DNA of 32,307 bases from the IMG/VR virus record IMGVR_UViG_2711768067_000015; one strand, 5' to 3'. Made by a program: the position numbers and the translations under genes. The stretch comes from a virus. Lineage: Duplodnaviria > Heunggongvirae > Uroviricota > Caudoviricetes. Of this stretch, positions 3,506-26,755 are shown piece after piece. The first letter of the stretch is position 1; every line of letters begins with the position of its first letter. The notes beneath the pieces are model-generated. The model was not told the DNA's origin, did no database searches, and saw only the letters and a list, made by a program, of their open reading frames with translations.

Positions 3506-4617
3506 TATGCGAGCCTCACAATATAGTTAAATGCGATGTTTTTGACGGTGTTTTCCGCGTTACCAGCAGCGTTAACGGTGATGGTGTGTCCATGTGAACC
3601 AATCGCAACGGAGTGCGTGTGTGCACCAATACCGACAGTGTGCTGATGAAAACCAATACCTACAGTATGAGAATGTGAGCCAGAGGAACCTGTTGTTGCT
3701 GATGTATATTGAGTTGCCAGACGCCCAGATGTCAGTGGAATTTTCCCCCCCTGGTTTGCACCATCTGATGTTGGTATTGAATGCGTGTGACTCCCGGCGT
3801 TACTGGTAGTTTTGGTCCCATAGTCAAATAGTGAGGTTGTTTTCGTCCCGTAATCAAACGACGATGTGGTTTTCGTACCCAAATCCGTACTGGATACGCT
3901 GGCGCTGTGGGTGTGCGATTTAATGCCGTCCTGTTCCTGAGACAATACGGCACGACCACTGGCGGGCTTGCCCTTAATCGTCCAGCCACGCATATCAGGG
4001 ATCACGCCTGACGGATAAGCAGCTGCAAGTTTCGGGTATGCAGACTTGTCAAAAGTCTGTCCCTGCATCAGAGCATAACCAGATGGAACTGTATCTGATG
4101 GCCACGGGATCGGGGCACCTACAGGAAAGGTCGAATTATTTTCCAAACCAAGATATTTAAGGACATCAGCAACAGAGCTTTTTGCCAAAATATCTCGCCC
4201 AACCTGTGTCAGGTCAGCCAAATTAGCGGTATCTTGATTGGTAAAATACGGTAATTTGTTTTCGGATGCTGAAAGATTAGCAAGTGCGGTAAGTATGGCA
4301 TTAATTCTCTGATAGTTCTTATCTAATGCAGACGACATTTTTGCGATAAAGCCGGCCTGATCGCCATCGTCCTGTACATCCAGTCCACTTTCATTTGCTG
4401 TATATTGTGCTATTGCAGATGCAATAAAGCTGGCCTGCCGAATAGCCTTGTTGACTTGCGCGCTGGATGCTTTCCCTGCTGTAAATCCTGATAAAAGCGC
4501 AGGCAACGCTTCCCATTCATCCTGCGACATAACATTGGCATTTTTACCCGTTGCAAACGCTTTAAAGTCATTTTTCGCCATCAGAGTAATACTCCCCATG
4601 CCCCTACATCAAAACCA
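3176..4617. repeat. Direct repeat copy 2 (identical to 866..2307)
   Basis: Same evidence as copy 1. To the right it continues into the unique gp48-like gene. Confidence 0.9.
3505..4599 (-). CDS. Tail fibre protein, copy 2 (identical to copy 1)
   Basis: Protein is identical to 1195..2289. The start overlaps the stop of the gp48-like gene, which is the native context. Confidence 0.85.
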
Positions 4618-22949: not shown

Positions 22950-23501
22950 TTAGCCCATCATTTTTCTATACGCCTCTGCAGCCTGCTCCGGCGTTAAGTT
23001 GGTAATTTCTGTTCTGACTGGTCCTCCGTCAGCACCAGTCACTTCATTTTTGACGTTGTCTTTAAACGCCTGAACAGAAACATGACGCCCAAGCAACTCA
23101 AGGTTTTTAACCTTATCAGGCCATTTGATTTTCTTCAGAAGTGCGGCGCTATCTGCGGATACCATCTCCACGACATCCATTCCTGATAGCGTTGTGCGCC
23201 ATACCTTAGGCCAGTCTTTAATGGGCTTTAGCTCACCGTTTTGCAGGAGAATGTCGAGCACATCCATCTGGTCGATTTCAATAAGGCGATTAAGTACATA
23301 TTCTGCATTAATCCCAACAAGATCATTGCGTTGCGCTTTCAGTTCGGCGATTCTTAACTTGATGTCAGGTTTTGACAGGTTTTCGGATGCGGTACGGTTA
23401 GCTGTCTTTGCGCTGTACCCCGCCCGAATAGCCGCTTGCGTGGCGTTTAAATCGATGAGGTACTCGCGACAGAACATTTCTTGCTTGTCGGTGAGTGCCA
23501 T
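22950..23501 (-). CDS. Terminase small subunit
   Basis: 183-aa ORF immediately upstream of large terminase with an N-terminal helix-turn-helix-like region. Confidence 0.75.
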
Positions 23502-23523
23502 AAATTACCTTTAAGGATTTCAC

Positions 23524-23742
23524 ATGAGTGATGAATACAAACAGAAAATCGGCATTCCAGATGACCATACACTGGAGCTTGTCTCTTCTAACTGGAAAGG
23601 AGCTCGAAAAGGTCAGGATACCGATGAATACCTTTACCGTGAGTTGGACGCTGCGGGAAATGTAGTGGCCACTTATGAAATTAAAGATTCAACTTCTATA
23701 TATCCACCATTCGGAAGATCTATCTCTTATAAGAAGGTCTAA
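23524..23742 (+). CDS. Hypothetical small protein (72 aa), divergent from the terminase operon
   Basis: ORF with an AAGGA ribosome-binding site 7 nt upstream of the ATG. It is the only plus-strand ORF in this stretch that does not overlap a minus-strand gene. Confidence 0.5.
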   Translation: MSDEYKQKIGIPDDHTLELVSSNWKGARKGQDTDEYLYRELDAAGNVVATYEIKDSTSIYPPFGRSISYKKV

Positions 23743-24078
23743 GCAACCAACTGACCAGCATGGCATTTCCGATTGAACATTTACACGTCCAGGATAATGC
23801 CATGTCTATTCCACAGTTCTATCGTCACCTACCGATATTGGCGTGAACTACACGCACTTGACATCAGCAGGAGCGAAGTACGCCCCCCTCCCGTCTAGGT
23901 CGCCAGCGGCACAAAGCCATTAACCAGCTCAGGCTGACGTCGTGACATCTTGCCCGTTTACTCGCCGCCGTCGTTCGTATTCAGTTTGATGATGTAGATG
24001 TCGGACATTGAGAGCCTCTTTATCCGCTTGTGGGGATATCAGTTAAGTTATCCCGTGTAGGGTATAAGCCATTATCAA

Positions 24079-24104
24079 AGCCATTCTGCAAGGAATGGCT
24101 TTTG
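24079..24104 (+). terminator. Rho-independent terminator-like hairpin (plus strand)
   Basis: Stem AGCCATTC / GAATGGCT (8 bp), loop TGCAAG, followed by TTTTGTG. Confidence 0.45.
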
Positions 24105-24132
24105 TGATGGCAATAAAAACAGCCGCAGGAGG

Positions 24133-24381
24133 TTAGATTAAGTCTTCACGTTTTACATATTCATCGATGTGATAAAGATGCATAAACTTTTCATCATGCC
24201 CACCAAATATCTGTGTTATCGATTCGTCATCCCGGCCTTCAACAATTAAATGCTTTTCATGTGTTCCCGGCATAAATAACGCCTTTACAACATGTTCTAA
24301 GTGGTGTTTGAACTGTATGTGAAGCTCTCTTTCATCCTCAAAAGGAATATTTTCGGTAAGTTCAAAATAACGAAATGCCAT
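24133..24381 (-). CDS. Hypothetical small acidic protein (82 aa) between the lysis and packaging modules
   Basis: ORF with a GGGAGG ribosome-binding site. A perfect 12-bp palindrome lies about 45 bp upstream. Confidence 0.6.
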   Translation of the reverse strand: MAFRYFELTENIPFEDERELHIQFKHHLEHVVKALFMPGTHEKHLIVEGRDDESITQIFGGHDEKFMHLYHIDEYVKREDLI

Positions 24382-24632
24382 ATCTACCTCCCGTATAATG
24401 AGAGCTCATCATTAATGAATTTTCTTGTCATGACAATGACAAATTATTTCAGGTTCCATTAGATATAGCTTTGTAATGAACAGGCACTTATCTCAACGCA
24501 GCCCCTTACCGCGCGCCAGATGCTCAACTTCAAGCATCAGCAATGAGATGTTTAATCTGGATTCACTCCAGAAGTAATCACCACCCTGTCTACAGAGCCA
24601 GATGTGAAGAATGATGAGTAAAATTATCGCTA

Positions 24633-25100
24633 TCATCGAAGGCATTGCATCCTGATGTATTCCTGAAGCGCTCTCAGTGCTGTTTGGTCGCGGATAATTC
24701 CGTCCCGGATACCGAGAACGTTTCGTCCAGCAACTGGAGAGAGTTCGACGGAGGCATCATTGCCCATGCCGGAGGCGCTGGAGGTTTCGGCTGAGGATGG
24801 CACAGGGCATTTTCCTTTGACGAGCACCCTGCCACCATTATCAAGCTTGCGCCGAAGAGCATCATTTTCAGCTTTCGCATCAGCTAACTCCTTCGTGTAT
24901 TTAGCATCGAGTGCATCAGCATCACGCTGGCGCTGCTGCATGTCAGTAATGGTGGCGTTCGCCTTCTCCAGTTCACTGGCCTTGTTATCGCGCTGCTCTT
25001 TGTAGGCGATTGCGTTATCACGGTAATGATTAACAGCCAATGACAGGCAGACGATGATGCAGATAACCAGAGCGGAGATAATCGCGGTTAACCGACTCAT
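24633..25100 (-). CDS. Rz: i-spanin Rz
   Basis: From the internal start [19 protein letters not shown]... there is an N-terminal transmembrane helix, then a coiled-coil-like charged region. Rz1 is embedded in the +1 frame. The track's longer ORF starts at 25229. Confidence 0.75.
24674..24880 (-). CDS. Rz1: o-spanin Rz1 (lipoprotein embedded within Rz)
   Basis: 68-aa ORF entirely inside Rz in another frame, with lipobox LIMVAGC and a Pro-rich mature part ([11 protein letters not shown]). Confidence 0.75.
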
Positions 25101-25188
25101 GACATCAACACTCCAACGGCCAGAAACCACGGACACGCATCGTTGCCATTGAATGCGAGCAACGCTGCCATGAAAAAGCAAATCATGC

Positions 25189-25686
25189 TCATTGTTGCCC
25201 CCACAAACAGACTTCACGCTCAATCTCACGACGAGTCATCAGACCTTTCCATTGCTTACCGCCAGCGTATGTCCAGCGACGTAGCTGATCACATGCGCCT
25301 TTGATATCGCCCTGGTTGATTTTGCGCAGAAGCGTCGATGTTCTGAAATTGCCAGCACCCACGTTGTAAACGAATGAGTAAAGAGCGCCGCGCGTTGTTT
25401 CCGGTATATCGACTTTGATGTACGGGTTAATTTGTCTGGCTACCGTGGCAAGGTCTTTATTCAGGAGGGCTTTGCATTCTGCTTCGGTATACGTTTTACC
25501 GGGAATGATGTCTTTTCCTGTATGCCCGTGACATACAGTCCATACGCCAACGATATCTTTGTATGGTATGTAGCTGACACCTTCCAGACCATCGTTACCA
25601 CCTGGACCAGTGATTAACACTGATGCTATAGCAATAGCCCCGCCACCAATAGCAGCTGCAACAGCTTTTCGTAATGATGGAGGCAT
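25189..25686 (-). CDS. R: SAR endolysin (phage-21 R-type lysozyme)
   Basis: 165-aa ORF with an N-terminal Gly/Ala-rich signal-anchor-release segment ([18 protein letters not shown]), directly downstream of the holin with ATGA overlap. Confidence 0.85.
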
Positions 25687-25901
25687 TATTCACCTCTCGC
25701 AGCCTTTCTTCTGTCTTCTCTGATTTTGAAGTACAGATTTGTCAGATAAGTCAAAAAGCCCAGAACTAGACTTCCCAGCACACCAATTGCAGCCCACTGT
25801 GACGGACTGACCTGATCCAACCACTTTAAAAACCAGTATCCCGCACTACCAGCGGATGTTCCGTAGGCAATGCCAGTAGAGATTTTGTCCATTGATTTCA
25901 T
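25686..25901 (-). CDS. S: Pinholin (phage-21 S-type, class II holin)
   Basis: 71-aa ORF with a dual-start motif (MKSM), two transmembrane segments and a charged C-terminus; a near match to phage 21 S as I recall it. GGAGG ribosome-binding site upstream. Confidence 0.85.
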
Positions 25902-26019
25902 AGCAACGCCTCCGCAAGTAACGGATTGCGTAGTTCTTATATTGGGAAGGGAGAAAAAGAAGGCCGCAGCGTAACTATCACTGATGAGTTCAGGATAGCC
26001 AGTGGCTACAGCTCAGTTA

Positions 26020-26095
26020 TGGTGCTGGTTAACGGACTTGAACCGCTACCCATTCGCTTACAAGGCGACTGCTCTACCATTGGAGCTAAACCAGC
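26020..26095 (-). tRNA. tRNA-like gene, anticodon UGU (Thr), CCA encoded
   Basis: Hand-folded cloverleaf: perfect 7-bp acceptor stem (GCTGGTT/AACCAGC), D-arm GCTC/GAGC with GG in the loop, anticodon loop CUUGUAA, T-arm with TTCAAGT loop. There is one mismatch in the anticodon stem, and position 14 is C rather than the conserved A. Confidence 0.6.
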
Positions 26096-26100
26096 ATATT

Positions 26101-26175
26101 TGGCGGGACAGCGTGGACTCGAACCACGATAAGAAGGTTAACAGCCTTCCGTAATGACCTTTATACGACTGACCC
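26101..26175 (-). tRNA. tRNA-like gene, anticodon GUU (Asn-like), possibly degenerate
   Basis: Perfect T-arm (CGTGG-TTCGAGT-CCACG) and anticodon arm (GAAGG-CUGUUAA-CCTTC), but one U-U mismatch in the acceptor stem and a weak D-stem. Confidence 0.45.
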
Positions 26176-26266
26176 AAATAAAAAAAGCCACCGTTGCAAC
26201 TTAAGAGTCACTAACGGCAGCTTATGCCAATAGTGTTGCTCATTTGCTCAATGATGTCAACACGTT

Positions 26267-26755
26267 CTATGCTACATGTTTAATTTTCTCTACACGTTTC
26301 CGATTTTTAAACGCACTATCCAGAACCGGGTAAATCATAAACAACGAGGCATTAAGGATTTCGTCAACTTCCCGTCGACAGGTTGCGAGCGACGGTTTTT
26401 GAATGCGCCCGCCGCCACGGCATAACATCTTGCGAGGTCTTGCGACGCGATGATAGTAAGATGCAATGGCGTGCTTGGAAGAGCCATGAGCGTAGTAGCT
26501 GAGGAGGATTCCAAAGGCTTTCTTGTCAATGTACATGACGGAATCGACGACCTGAGAAATCAACATTCCATCATCATCATTACACATTGGCCTTGTCATA
26601 ACTCTTCCCGGCTCTACGCTCTCCATGAACTTCGCTATTACGCTGCTCATGCGCTTTTCCAGACGACCTGAATAAACCCATGCGCCCCACAGTTCAAGCC
26701 AGCCATTCAGCCACTCATGCTGTTCTTTGGTGAGGTTTAGTTCTCTTATGCCCAC
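26267..26755 (-). CDS. Q: Late gene antiterminator Q (phage 82/933W type, not lambda-Q type)
   Basis: 162-aa ORF directly downstream of ninI. Motifs ELWGAWV and [13 protein letters not shown] resemble 82-family Q proteins as I recall them. Start is GTG in the track. Confidence 0.7.

Follow-up and report, generated by a model that had tools for sequence, protein, structure and literature searches.

RNase III processing hairpins of the T7 R1.1 type are found in phage polycistronic mRNAs. The late regions of lambdoid phages carry lambda bor and other 'moron' genes (Juhala et al., 2000, as cited in PMC4104026), and the lambdoid small RNAs known so far map either 3′ of PR′ or within the early-left operon, outside the interval from Rz to terS (PMC4104026; bioRxiv 10.1101/2024.10.31.621285). 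The locus studied here occupies the same gene slot between Rz and the terminase as lambda bor and the morons of the K-12 prophages DLP12 and Qin (borD, ybcV, ylcI, cspI and gnsB). As in that slot, its small genes differ between phages, and some of them run opposite to late transcription. Relatives hold other gene sets in the same place, and such presence or absence between conserved neighbors in related phages is one mark of a moron; the cargo hotspot between lysis cassette and terminase that the preliminary description had seen here is thereby supported.

The window (the whole stretch of DNA analyzed, 32,307 nt) is a lambdoid E. coli prophage with its late operon on the minus strand, in the order Q, two tRNAs, holin, lysozyme, Rz/Rz1, the gap, terS and terL. 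The gap is bordered by the Rz spanin gene (24633..25100, minus strand; RefSeq coordinates; Pfam Phage_lysis, E 4e-29), which ends the lysis cassette, and by terS for the small terminase subunit (22950..23501, minus strand; in RefSeq; Pfam Terminase_2, E 7e-40), with which the packaging-side module starts. RefSeq contains a 100% identical E. coli prophage, in which the 72-aa and the 82-aa ORFs of the gap are both labelled hypothetical proteins. The ORFs, hairpins and mini-ORF of the preliminary description were all present where it had placed them, as was its stretch of about 390 bp without a long ORF (23743..24132, 390 bp, with no ORF of at least 30 aa wholly within). The two small genes which its title called divergent are actually convergent; it is the 72-aa gene and terS that diverge, with 22 bp between them.

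Overall, the architecture of the gap as a whole is probably that of a recombination patchwork rather than of one functional module. The lysis-side segment comprises Rz, a 50-aa ORF and the 82-aa gene, and the packaging-side segment comprises terS, the 72-aa gene and the 'non-coding' DNA with a dead phrog_6581 gene. Matches to relatives break at window positions 24019-24135, and the two segments are joined inside a conserved element of ~100 nt which is common to both parental types. Both the 72-aa and the 82-aa gene are genuine accessory genes, independent of each other: the former was present in 16/5426 E. coli genomes, the latter in 10/5426 and both in 3/5426, so they are mostly inherited apart.

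The 16-codon minus-strand mini-ORF (24008..23958) reads MSDIYIIKLNTNDGGE, is hydrophilic, and equals the first 16 codons of the dead phrog_6581 gene. When aligned with its intact counterpart in Enterobacter phage CobraSix (beginning MSDTYIIKLTTNDGGEYTGKMSRRQPELVNGF; 87% nucleotide identity), the pseudogene of this ~70-aa phage gene spans 23806..24008 (minus strand). Compared to CobraSix, it has accumulated three stop codons and a frameshift (TAC>TAA at codon 17, GAG>TAG, a 1-nt deletion and CAG>TAG), and identical defects were present in every E. coli copy examined. The intact CobraSix protein matches phrog_6581 with E 1e-35. The AAGAGG ribosome-binding site (24015..24020, minus strand), 6 nt before the ATG, does have the ideal spacing attributed to it, and in relatives the same position is the ribosome-binding site of whichever gene follows the core described below. 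As judged from this alignment, a decayed gene has left behind both the mini-ORF, which is its stub, and the ribosome-binding site. A functional mini-ORF encoding a small toxin or a leader peptide was ruled out by the stops, the frameshift and the CobraSix alignment.

Between the convergent ends of the pseudogene and the 72-aa gene is a hairpin with a perfect 9-bp stem (23759..23804), starting 1 nt past the relic stop of the former and 17 nt past the stop of the latter. Its reality was confirmed by folding beyond shuffled controls on both strands (−24.0 kcal/mol and z −5.7 on the minus strand; −17.1 kcal/mol and z −3.8 on the plus strand). The terminator scan detected no U-tract for it on either strand, and it is confined to the few genomes carrying the packaging-side module.

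The 72-aa gene (23524..23742, plus strand) lies opposite to the late operon and encodes a cytoplasmic protein without a signal peptide. It is a real gene because its pN/pS is ~0.06 (pN 0.05 versus pS 0.82). Like lambda bor, it runs against late transcription, and in the lysogen a promoter of its own would drive it; the scan of 23300..24800 found no plus-strand promoter for it. The protein had no match in Pfam, NCBIfam, PHROGs or PADLOC. In a profile search of 1.8 billion proteins, the domain matched PIN_8 proteins over their C-terminal ~70 residues (P0092, E 7e-11; P0134, E 3.5e-6; P0143, E 4.4e-5); their N-terminal part is covered by Pfam PIN_8. The window protein is free-standing, has no PIN domain, and is flanked by terS and the pseudogene, with no PIN nuclease among its neighbors. 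These matches would fit an anti-defense or decoy protein, a free PIN_8 C-terminal domain interfering with or regulating such nucleases, as would its position on the anti-late strand, typical for lysogen-expressed genes. Some family members point the same way: one carries in fusion a piece of the PADLOC candidate PDC-M68B, one lies within a type I restriction-modification locus beside DUF2188, and others have a small zinc-ribbon protein fused to them or encoded next to them. The gene contexts of distant homologues came mostly from short, uninformative contigs. However, the 72-aa protein itself is invisible to PADLOC, PIN_8 proteins are no established defense system, and the 72-aa fold is generic, which leaves the anti-defense role an unlikely one, albeit compatible with the patchwork explanation. 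With the domain common to PIN_8 nucleases and zinc-ribbon partners, an interference role becomes testable.

The 82-aa gene (24133..24381, minus strand) is co-oriented with the late operon and has a strong GGGAGG ribosome-binding site. Its product is acidic, as already noted in the preliminary description, and His-rich (18 D+E versus 9 K+R, and 9 His), with a ferredoxin-like fold. The gene always follows the spanin gene, also in prophages with unrelated lysis cassettes. Upstream of it (24408..24451, minus strand) is a promoter-like site, TTGTCA-17-AATGAT, overlapped by an inverted repeat with 16-nt arms (24416-24431 / 24436-24451). This was the one sigma-70-like site found in 23300..24800, against a chance expectation of 2.7, and hence it is weak evidence for a promoter. 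The 50-aa ORF (24493..24645, minus strand; RefSeq-annotated; phrog_11822, E 6e-37) overlaps the Rz stop codon, is of membrane type (hydrophobic N-terminus, GRAVY +0.59), and is the counterpart of Sf6 gene 65 in the equivalent position. It is absent from the preliminary description, though partly inside the range covered there.

The sole family matches of the 82-aa and 50-aa proteins are PHROG families without assigned function, and the small gap proteins had no match in a sequence search of PDB and none in BFVD at E ≤0.001. The 72-aa and 82-aa proteins, neither of which had been recognized initially, are thus both real and uncharacterized. They are unrelated to Bor and to the K-12 cargo. Of the flanking promoter and terminator of a moron, the scan showed a promoter-like site with a palindrome at the 82-aa gene only, and no canonical terminator.

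A toxin-antitoxin-like module, suggested earlier by the layout of the small genes around a structured region, would require toxin and antidote to be either the pair of small proteins or else the mini-ORF and an antisense RNA. The reading is largely refuted by the independent inheritance of the two genes (16, 10 and 3 of 5426 genomes, as given above). Moreover, these genes converge over a distance of 390 bp, with the pseudogene and the RNA element between them, and belong to separate mosaic segments, so that they show neither the adjacent, co-oriented and co-transcribed arrangement of type II systems nor their joint inheritance; family homology is missing too, since neither protein matches toxin, antitoxin or defense models in Pfam, NCBIfam or PADLOC. 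As a type I toxin, the mini-ORF would have to be intact, conserved and usually hydrophobic; it is a hydrophilic stub, created by the TAC>TAA change that truncates a 70-aa gene. The ferredoxin-like fold of the 82-aa protein recalls GhoS and Cas2, but sequence identity to these is only 3–7%, and they scored no better than ACT, S6 and many other ferredoxin-like folds. The 82-aa gene has neither a partner toxin gene nor a sequence-profile match to such proteins. Altogether, a toxin-antitoxin function of the gap is highly improbable, and as first framed the locus is an ordinary one: a slot whose cargo is two orphan genes and a decayed one.

The conserved element at the mosaic joint consists of a hairpin (P1; 24068..24111, minus strand) and a near-invariant core of ~50 nt. 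P1 is an inverted repeat with 19-nt arms (24068-24086 / 24093-24111), folding into an outer stem (24111..24107 / 24072..24068), an internal loop and an inner stem (24102..24093 / 24086..24077). The hairpin at 24079..24104 that was initially taken for a plus-strand terminator is the inner part, or tip, of P1 (z −2.9 on the plus and −3.8 on the minus strand against shuffled sequences). Among the copies, P1 has an outer stem of 5–7 bp, a CA/GA internal loop and an inner stem of 9–10 bp, and the covariance model matched window positions 24008..24120 (minus strand) with 107.5 bits. In 37 distinct copies, 98.7% of the stem cells were paired on the late strand, with double changes at 5 pairs (51 cells), whereas 0/500 shuffles reached the observed pairing and slid controls were at most 47.5% paired. 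Compensatory changes beyond controls are what is generally expected of a conserved structured RNA. The mean identity of 34 distinct inner stems was 58%, yet 97% of their cells were paired, in a comparison whose energy filter favors the sense strand. This pattern of substitutions, which extends over many lambdoid and P22-like phages, makes P1 very probably a selected RNA hairpin.

The strand on which P1 is read is, going by its base pairs and surroundings, most likely the late (minus) one. In the strand test with the 37 copies, 79 wobble pairs became mismatches on the other strand (98.7% versus 84.5% paired), and copies without any mismatch numbered 32/37 on the late strand versus 4/37 on the other. 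The flanking ORFs were co-oriented with the sense strand of P1 in 46/49 core-bearing contexts. Folding energies behaved differently: the window P1 folds with −31.6 kcal/mol on the plus strand versus −24.5 kcal/mol on the minus strand, the CCAT(C/U)ACA-type P1, to which it belongs, has an equally or more stable plus-strand fold, and the antisense fold is more stable in 27/49 core-bearing copies. What decides for the late strand is therefore the wobble counts, along with the HK97-type copies and the orientation of the genes.

Those energies would suit a plus-strand sRNA, or a long 3′UTR of the 72-aa gene, ending at a terminator at 24079..24104 and antisense to the late leader. The plus-strand fold of the window is strong (z −4.7) and is followed, on this strand only, by UUUUGUG, and copies of its P1 type frequently fold more stably in antisense. 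Nevertheless, the standard scan of 23300..24800 found 0 intrinsic terminators (1.1 expected), neither hairpin passing, and no promoter on the plus strand. Copies of the HK97 and epsilon34 types lack a U-tract on both strands and would have ~4 mismatches on the plus strand, stand-alone copies of P1 favor the sense strand in 38/42 cases, and an Rfam match is absent. A plus-strand sRNA is accordingly quite unlikely. The hairpin and the following UUUUGUG are real; P1 as a canonical terminator was rejected, since the scan was negative, the base of P1 is AT-rich instead of forming a GC-rich stem-loop with a U-tract, and the HK97-type copies lack the latter altogether. From the earlier suggestion of an sRNA locus, the structured RNA is retained, while the evidence favors a cis element of the late transcript. 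Canonical terminators adjoin P1 on its upstream side in many copies, with a GC-rich stem and T6-7 (e.g., ACCGCC-UCCG-GGCGGU-UUUUUAUU in L002). At this spot, the window has a T-run (CUGUUUUUAUU; 24112..24132, minus strand), apparently a remnant of the intrinsic terminator which abuts P1 in relatives, with no stable stem (z +0.5).

The core (24020..24067, minus strand) has the layout UUAUACCC..GGGAUAA..UAUCCC..GGAUAA. It was near-invariant in the 37 distinct copies, also at positions beyond the search pattern, although the copies had been gathered by similarity or pattern, which inflates the apparent conservation. RNAalifold predicted a hairpin, GGGAUA/UAUCCC, nested within a helix, UUAU.CC/GGAUAA. 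Within the canonical set no core pair varies, and support for pairing comes from few diverged copies alone, those of L169, L183, L210, L216 and L151, which retain the four-segment layout. With no covariation in the canonical core, an RNA fold is not distinguished from DNA palindromes (TTATCCC-N5-8-GGGATAA) serving as protein-binding sites. Inspection by eye gave no acceptable match to an IHF site or a sigma-70 promoter within the core. The core stops exactly at the ribosome-binding site of the next gene, which is one of at least five different genes (DUF2560, terS, phrog_6581 and others).

The element could also act at the DNA level only, either as a crossover 'boundary sequence' or as two operator palindromes bound by a DNA-binding protein of the phage, without RNA function. 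The mosaic joint of this prophage indeed lies inside it, junctions to different neighbors occur exactly at its two ends, the core is legible as two TTATCCC inverted repeats lacking covariation, and the Sf6 record annotates boundary sequences nearby. A recombination linker, however, does not predict a P1 inner stem that varies and still pairs, with strand-specific wobbles, and the orientation of the element is fixed relative to the flanking genes. An exclusively DNA-level role therefore appears improbable.

P1-plus-core was detected in 2588/5426 E. coli genomes (about half), in 106 phage records and in more than 120 viral contigs, the named carriers being HK97, HK022, Sf6, HK620, epsilon34 and Stx phages including Stx2. 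The first search with the exact stem yielded only 16 contigs because the P1 stem varies. Rfam 15 (23000..26400, E up to 1) returned two tRNAs and one chance match to a miRNA model (E 0.067). The element is absent from the K-12 prophages DLP12 and Qin, so curated K-12 annotation is of no help. Its exact sequence had no match in literature text and was not found in the supplements of PMC4104026; the Pas-sRNA preprint contains nothing on terminase, lysis, spanin, DUF2560, late operon or HNH, and the element is not taken up in the genome paper on epsilon34. P1-plus-core is thus apparently an undescribed conserved RNA element.

As for its function, Q-antiterminated late transcription would cross the entire gap on the minus strand, and P1 plus core might serve as a punctuation and leader element of the late transcript. 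P1 would be a hairpin recognized by a protein or an RNase, with a processing, 3′-end-forming or insulating role, separating the accessory from the packaging part, and the core would prepare the first gene downstream for translation. This RNA mechanism is plausible, with somewhat less than even confidence. A more specific version can be put forward only tentatively, namely that lambdoid and P22-like late operons carry a so far undescribed cis-acting RNA, in which a sequence-specific P1, bound by a factor of host or phage, and a two-state leader process or insulate the transcript and gate the first packaging-side gene. In such a leader, UUAUACCC, GGGAUAA, UAUCCC and GGAUAA would pair to give either two hairpins or nested helices. 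If the element does process or gate the late transcript, it would be a missing piece of late-gene control and would help explain the recurrent mosaic joints at the junction of lysis/accessory and packaging genes, where it sits in many model phages and in Shiga-toxin phages.

The P22-like regions compared were Sf6 genes 65-67 and the HK620 hkbM region. In Sf6, P1-plus-core fills the intergenic space between gene 66 and gene 67 (38500-38589). There it is preceded by gene 66 and followed by the DUF2560 gene (gene 67), whereas in the window it is preceded by the 82-aa gene and followed by the dead phrog_6581 gene. Like the 'boundary sequences' (bsq) of Sf6, annotated following the HK620 analysis, it is a short conserved stretch at a mosaic joint, but it is not so annotated in the Sf6 record, and its hairpin changes are compensatory and strand-biased. 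With the anti-sRNAs AsxR and AgvB, StxS, and lambda PreS/LPR2/6S, it shares the character of a short structured RNA in lambdoid prophages, with no sequence or Rfam match to them. Similar to RNase III sites, P1 is an irregular helix of ~19–20 bp with a conserved internal loop, placed between cistrons; the likeness to the T7 R1.1 type is one of shape and position, with no sequence relationship. In contrast to the T7 R1.1 type, the outer stem of P1 is conserved in sequence (GCCAUUA/UAAUGGC), together with the CA/GA loop, which suggests that P1 may have a specific reader.

The window is a lambdoid E. coli prophage, 100% identical to strain QML220601 over 23400..24750. Its late operon lies on the minus strand and runs from the Q antiterminator (26755..26267) through tRNA-Thr, tRNA-Asn, holin, lysozyme RrrD and Rz with Rz1 (25100..24633) to a gap, terS (23501..22950; Terminase_2, E 7e-40) and terL, so the plus strand of the preliminary description is antisense to late transcription. 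The tRNA pair (Thr and Asn per RefSeq; 26020..26175, minus strand), with Q on one side and the holin on the other, occupies the position behind PR' that is a classic site for cargo. In the mechanical ORF list, Rz is a 198-aa product (24633..25229, minus strand) of an upstream GTG start, while RefSeq starts it at 25100 with 155 aa; the longer form is probably an ORF-calling artefact. Every feature of the gap named in the preliminary description was located, including the 390-bp interval without a long ORF. The 72-aa ORF (23524..23742, plus strand) and the 82-aa ORF (24133..24381, minus strand), reported there as divergent, are in fact convergent, and a 50-aa ORF within the same range (24493..24645, minus strand) had been passed over.

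Matches to the window among 5426 complete E. coli genomes fall into two sets. The packaging-side set (13 genomes) matches from terS through the 72-aa gene into the non-coding DNA, as far as window positions 24073-24135, beyond which it carries other genes, e.g. KilA-N. The lysis-side set matches from 24019-24033 across the 82-aa gene, the 50-aa ORF and Rz, and has a P22-like packaging module on the opposite side. The two sets overlap at 24019..24135, the position of a conserved element, so a crossover within this element most likely gave rise to the prophage. The 72-aa gene was present in 16 of these genomes, the 82-aa gene in 10 and the full arrangement in 3, so the two genes, which lie on either side of a mosaic joint, are inherited independently and mostly apart. 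The region is a recombination mosaic and not a module. The small genes and structured DNA had been considered compatible with a toxin-antitoxin-like module, but every tested defining feature of such modules failed, which makes this reading highly improbable.

The conserved element consists of a bipartite hairpin, P1 (24111..24068, on the late, minus strand), followed by a near-invariant core (24067..24020, minus strand; UUAUACCCUACACGGGAUAACUUAACUGAUAUCCC(N7)GGAUAA). A stretch of about 100 nt (24018..24125) recurs in 2588 of the 5426 E. coli genomes and in 106 phage records, among them HK97, HK022, HK620, Sf6, epsilon34, CUS-3, the mEp phages and Stx1/Stx2 phages, and the core is carried by more than 120 viral contigs. 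Species-representative genomes with the element belong to E. coli, E. albertii and Shimwellia, with a few MAG contigs in addition; E. coli K-12 lacks it. In nearly all cases it is intergenic DNA that carries no annotation; the record of phage Ayreon labels it "terminator". In some copies P1 is directly preceded by a canonical GC-rich terminator with a T6-7 run, in others by coding sequence that reaches up to it, and in the window copy only a degenerate T-run is left. The end of the core coincides exactly with the start of the next gene's ribosome-binding site, and this gene varies: DUF2560 in about 60 of 132 cases, Ayreon/Stx2-type sequence in about 45, and elsewhere phrog_6581 (as in the window), a gene beginning MAENVG or terS itself. 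HK97-type loci have a second covariance-model hit (25-34 bits, ~62 nt) about 240 nt upstream of the full element, probably another P1-like hairpin; the weaker hits of this kind lie at L161 1132..1193, L156 1120..1181, L155 1631..1692 and L153 6499..6560.

Comparison of its copies identifies P1 as a conserved hairpin, very probably one under selection as RNA. Standard pairs form in 98.7% of the stem cells of 37 distinct copies, with double changes at five pairs (51 cells); none of 500 shuffles reached this level, and slid controls were at most 47.5% paired. The outer stem GCCAUUA/UAAUGGC and the CA/GA internal loop are fixed, while 34 distinct inner stems, a set pre-filtered by sense-strand folding energy, have a mean identity of only 58%, yet 97% of their cells pair. 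The hairpin is very probably read on the late strand. The 79 wobble pairs of that strand become mismatches on the other (98.7% versus 84.5% paired), and mismatch-free copies number 32 of 37 on the late strand versus 4 of 37; in 46 of 49 core-containing contexts the flanking ORFs point the same way as the P1 sense strand, and the sense fold is better in 38 of 42 copies that stand alone. A plus-strand terminator or sRNA draws on folding energies: core-bearing copies whose P1 is of the CCAT(C/U)ACA type, that of the window among them, have a plus-strand fold as stable as the late-strand one or more so (-31.6 versus -24.5 kcal/mol for the window), as is true of 27 of 49 overall. The 24079..24104 hairpin, previously described as terminator-like on the plus strand, is real and forms the inner part of P1; a canonical intrinsic terminator was found on neither strand, and this alternative is improbable.

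P1 also stands alone, with no core, in numerous other phage contexts. Such lone copies lie between late-region genes of many phages (L002 ~4114..4154, L004 988..1027, L151 3383..3419 and many viral contigs, among them L176, L179, L186, L208, L212, L224 and L225), with completely different inner stems. Often a ribosome-binding site and an ATG, or a promoter-like sequence (TTGACA...TATAAT), come next within 10-25 nt. The Sf6 boundary sequence bsq7 (CATTACCGTGATAATG; Sf6 locus L024 1685..1732) has a one-mismatch copy within the window Rz (25013..25028, minus strand); the stretch looks like a P1 reduced to its outer stem and loop, the inner stem missing (CCATTACA...GATAATGG), which may be a coincidence.

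For the core, RNAalifold predicts a GGGAUA/UAUCCC hairpin nested in a UUAU.CC/GGAUAA helix, and the same four segments could alternatively pair as two adjacent hairpins. Diverged cores, downstream of P1 in L169, L183, L210 and L216 and immediately after an 82-aa homologue in L151 (3757..3843), keep the layout UAUCCCC / GGGAUAA / UAUCCC / GGGGAUAA. This layout resembles either a switch or two DNA palindromes. No covariation was found in it within the canonical set, which leaves room for a palindrome pair (TTATCCC-N-GGGATAA). That the whole element acts only as DNA, as a boundary or operator, would suit these palindromes and is less easily matched with the strand-dependent pairing of P1; we consider it unlikely.

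Behind the core, the 16-codon ORF (24008..23958, minus strand) does have AAGAGG six bases 5' of its ATG, but it is not a gene of its own. The stretch 23829..24009 shares 87% identity with a portion of a gene in Enterobacter phage CobraSix which, from an internal Met, encodes MSDTYIIKLTTNDGGEYTGKMSRRQPELVNGFVPLATETGEWLYFAPADVKRVQF... and matches phrog_6581 (E 1e-35). Compared with it, the window copy has TAC>TAA at codon 17, GAG>TAG, a 1-nt deletion and CAG>TAG, and every E. coli copy retrieved has identical lesions. These lesions mark the mini-ORF as what is left of the start of a dead gene, 16 codons long because of the first stop, and its "ideal" ribosome-binding site is consequently a relic. 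A paralogue (MSDIYQIMLTTQTGETFTGKMSRRQRELVNGF...) after the same core stops after 41 codons (L076 ~10165, L135 ~4860); decay of genes in this family may have recurred among E. coli prophages. The 23759..23804 hairpin (9-bp perfect stem; z -3.8 on the plus and -5.7 on the minus strand) starts one base after the relic stop and 17 nt after that of the 72-aa gene. This hairpin folds more stably on the late strand, has no U-tract, is confined to the few genomes with this module and is probably a 3' hairpin common to two convergent genes.

The 72-aa and 82-aa genes are both under selection. The 72-aa gene is intact, although unannotated, at the same terS-adjoining position in Cronobacter phage phiES15, and the 47 nucleotide differences divide into 38.5 synonymous and 8.5 non-synonymous (pS 0.82, pN 0.05), hence strong purifying selection. 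The family comprises 26 clusters at 90% identity, in Enterobacterales, and 116 at 50% in a full profile search. Its domain makes up the C-terminal part of PIN_8 (PF18476) proteins (P0092, E 7e-11; P0104; P0134; P0143), has an N-terminal zinc ribbon ahead of it in P0097 and P0110, and is joined in P0115 to a fragment of PDC-M68B, a PADLOC candidate. In L249 (888..1321), the domain gene directly follows a separate small zinc-ribbon gene, and one homologue directly follows a DUF2188 gene within a type I restriction-modification locus (L027 3746..4231). Such company would suit an anti-defence role, which we regard as unlikely, though compatible with the explanation preferred below. In another lambdoid prophage, a 69%-identical homologue likewise occupies the gap from Rz to terS, on the anti-late strand and with DUF2158 and DUF6953 genes around it. 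A promoter scan of the gap region detected none for the 72-aa gene; its expression in the lysogen is suggested by analogy with lambda bor.

The 82-aa protein is acidic (18 D+E versus 9 K+R), His-rich (9 His) and matches phrog_35226 (E 1e-55), with no match in BFVD or PDB sequence searches. Its 13 clusters are all from Enterobacterales, and in Serratia and Scandinavium prophages, which have unrelated types of holin, lysozyme and spanin, the homologue is again the first gene after the spanin and points the same way. The only promoter-like site of the region (24408..24451, minus strand) lies just upstream, overlapped by an inverted repeat with 16-nt arms (TGAATTTTCTTGTCAT / ATGACAAATTATTTCA). This palindrome looks like an operator, so the 82-aa gene may have its own regulated promoter. 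The RefSeq-annotated 50-aa ORF has a hydrophobic N-terminus, belongs to phrog_11822 and corresponds to Sf6 gene 65.

Our preferred, still tentative, explanation is that P1 serves as a punctuation mark and the core as a translation leader. Q-modified RNA polymerase would transcribe the entire gap on the minus strand; P1 in the late RNA would be a hairpin that serves processing, 3'-end formation or insulation and is recognised by a sequence-specific factor, and the core would lead translation of the first downstream gene, in the window now a dead one. The 72-aa gene would be lysogen-expressed cargo on the opposite strand. The moderate interest of the region rests on an unannotated conserved hairpin family and not on the module proposed before. 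The element matched no Rfam family, and a text search for its sequence gave no match; the prophage RNAs AsxR/AgvB, StxS and PreS/LPR2/6S sit in other prophage parts. In geometry, P1 is similar to RNase III sites. The locus itself is the well-known "moron" cargo slot from Rz to the terminase, occupied as by lambda bor and, in K-12, by borD, ybcV, ylcI, cspI and gnsB.
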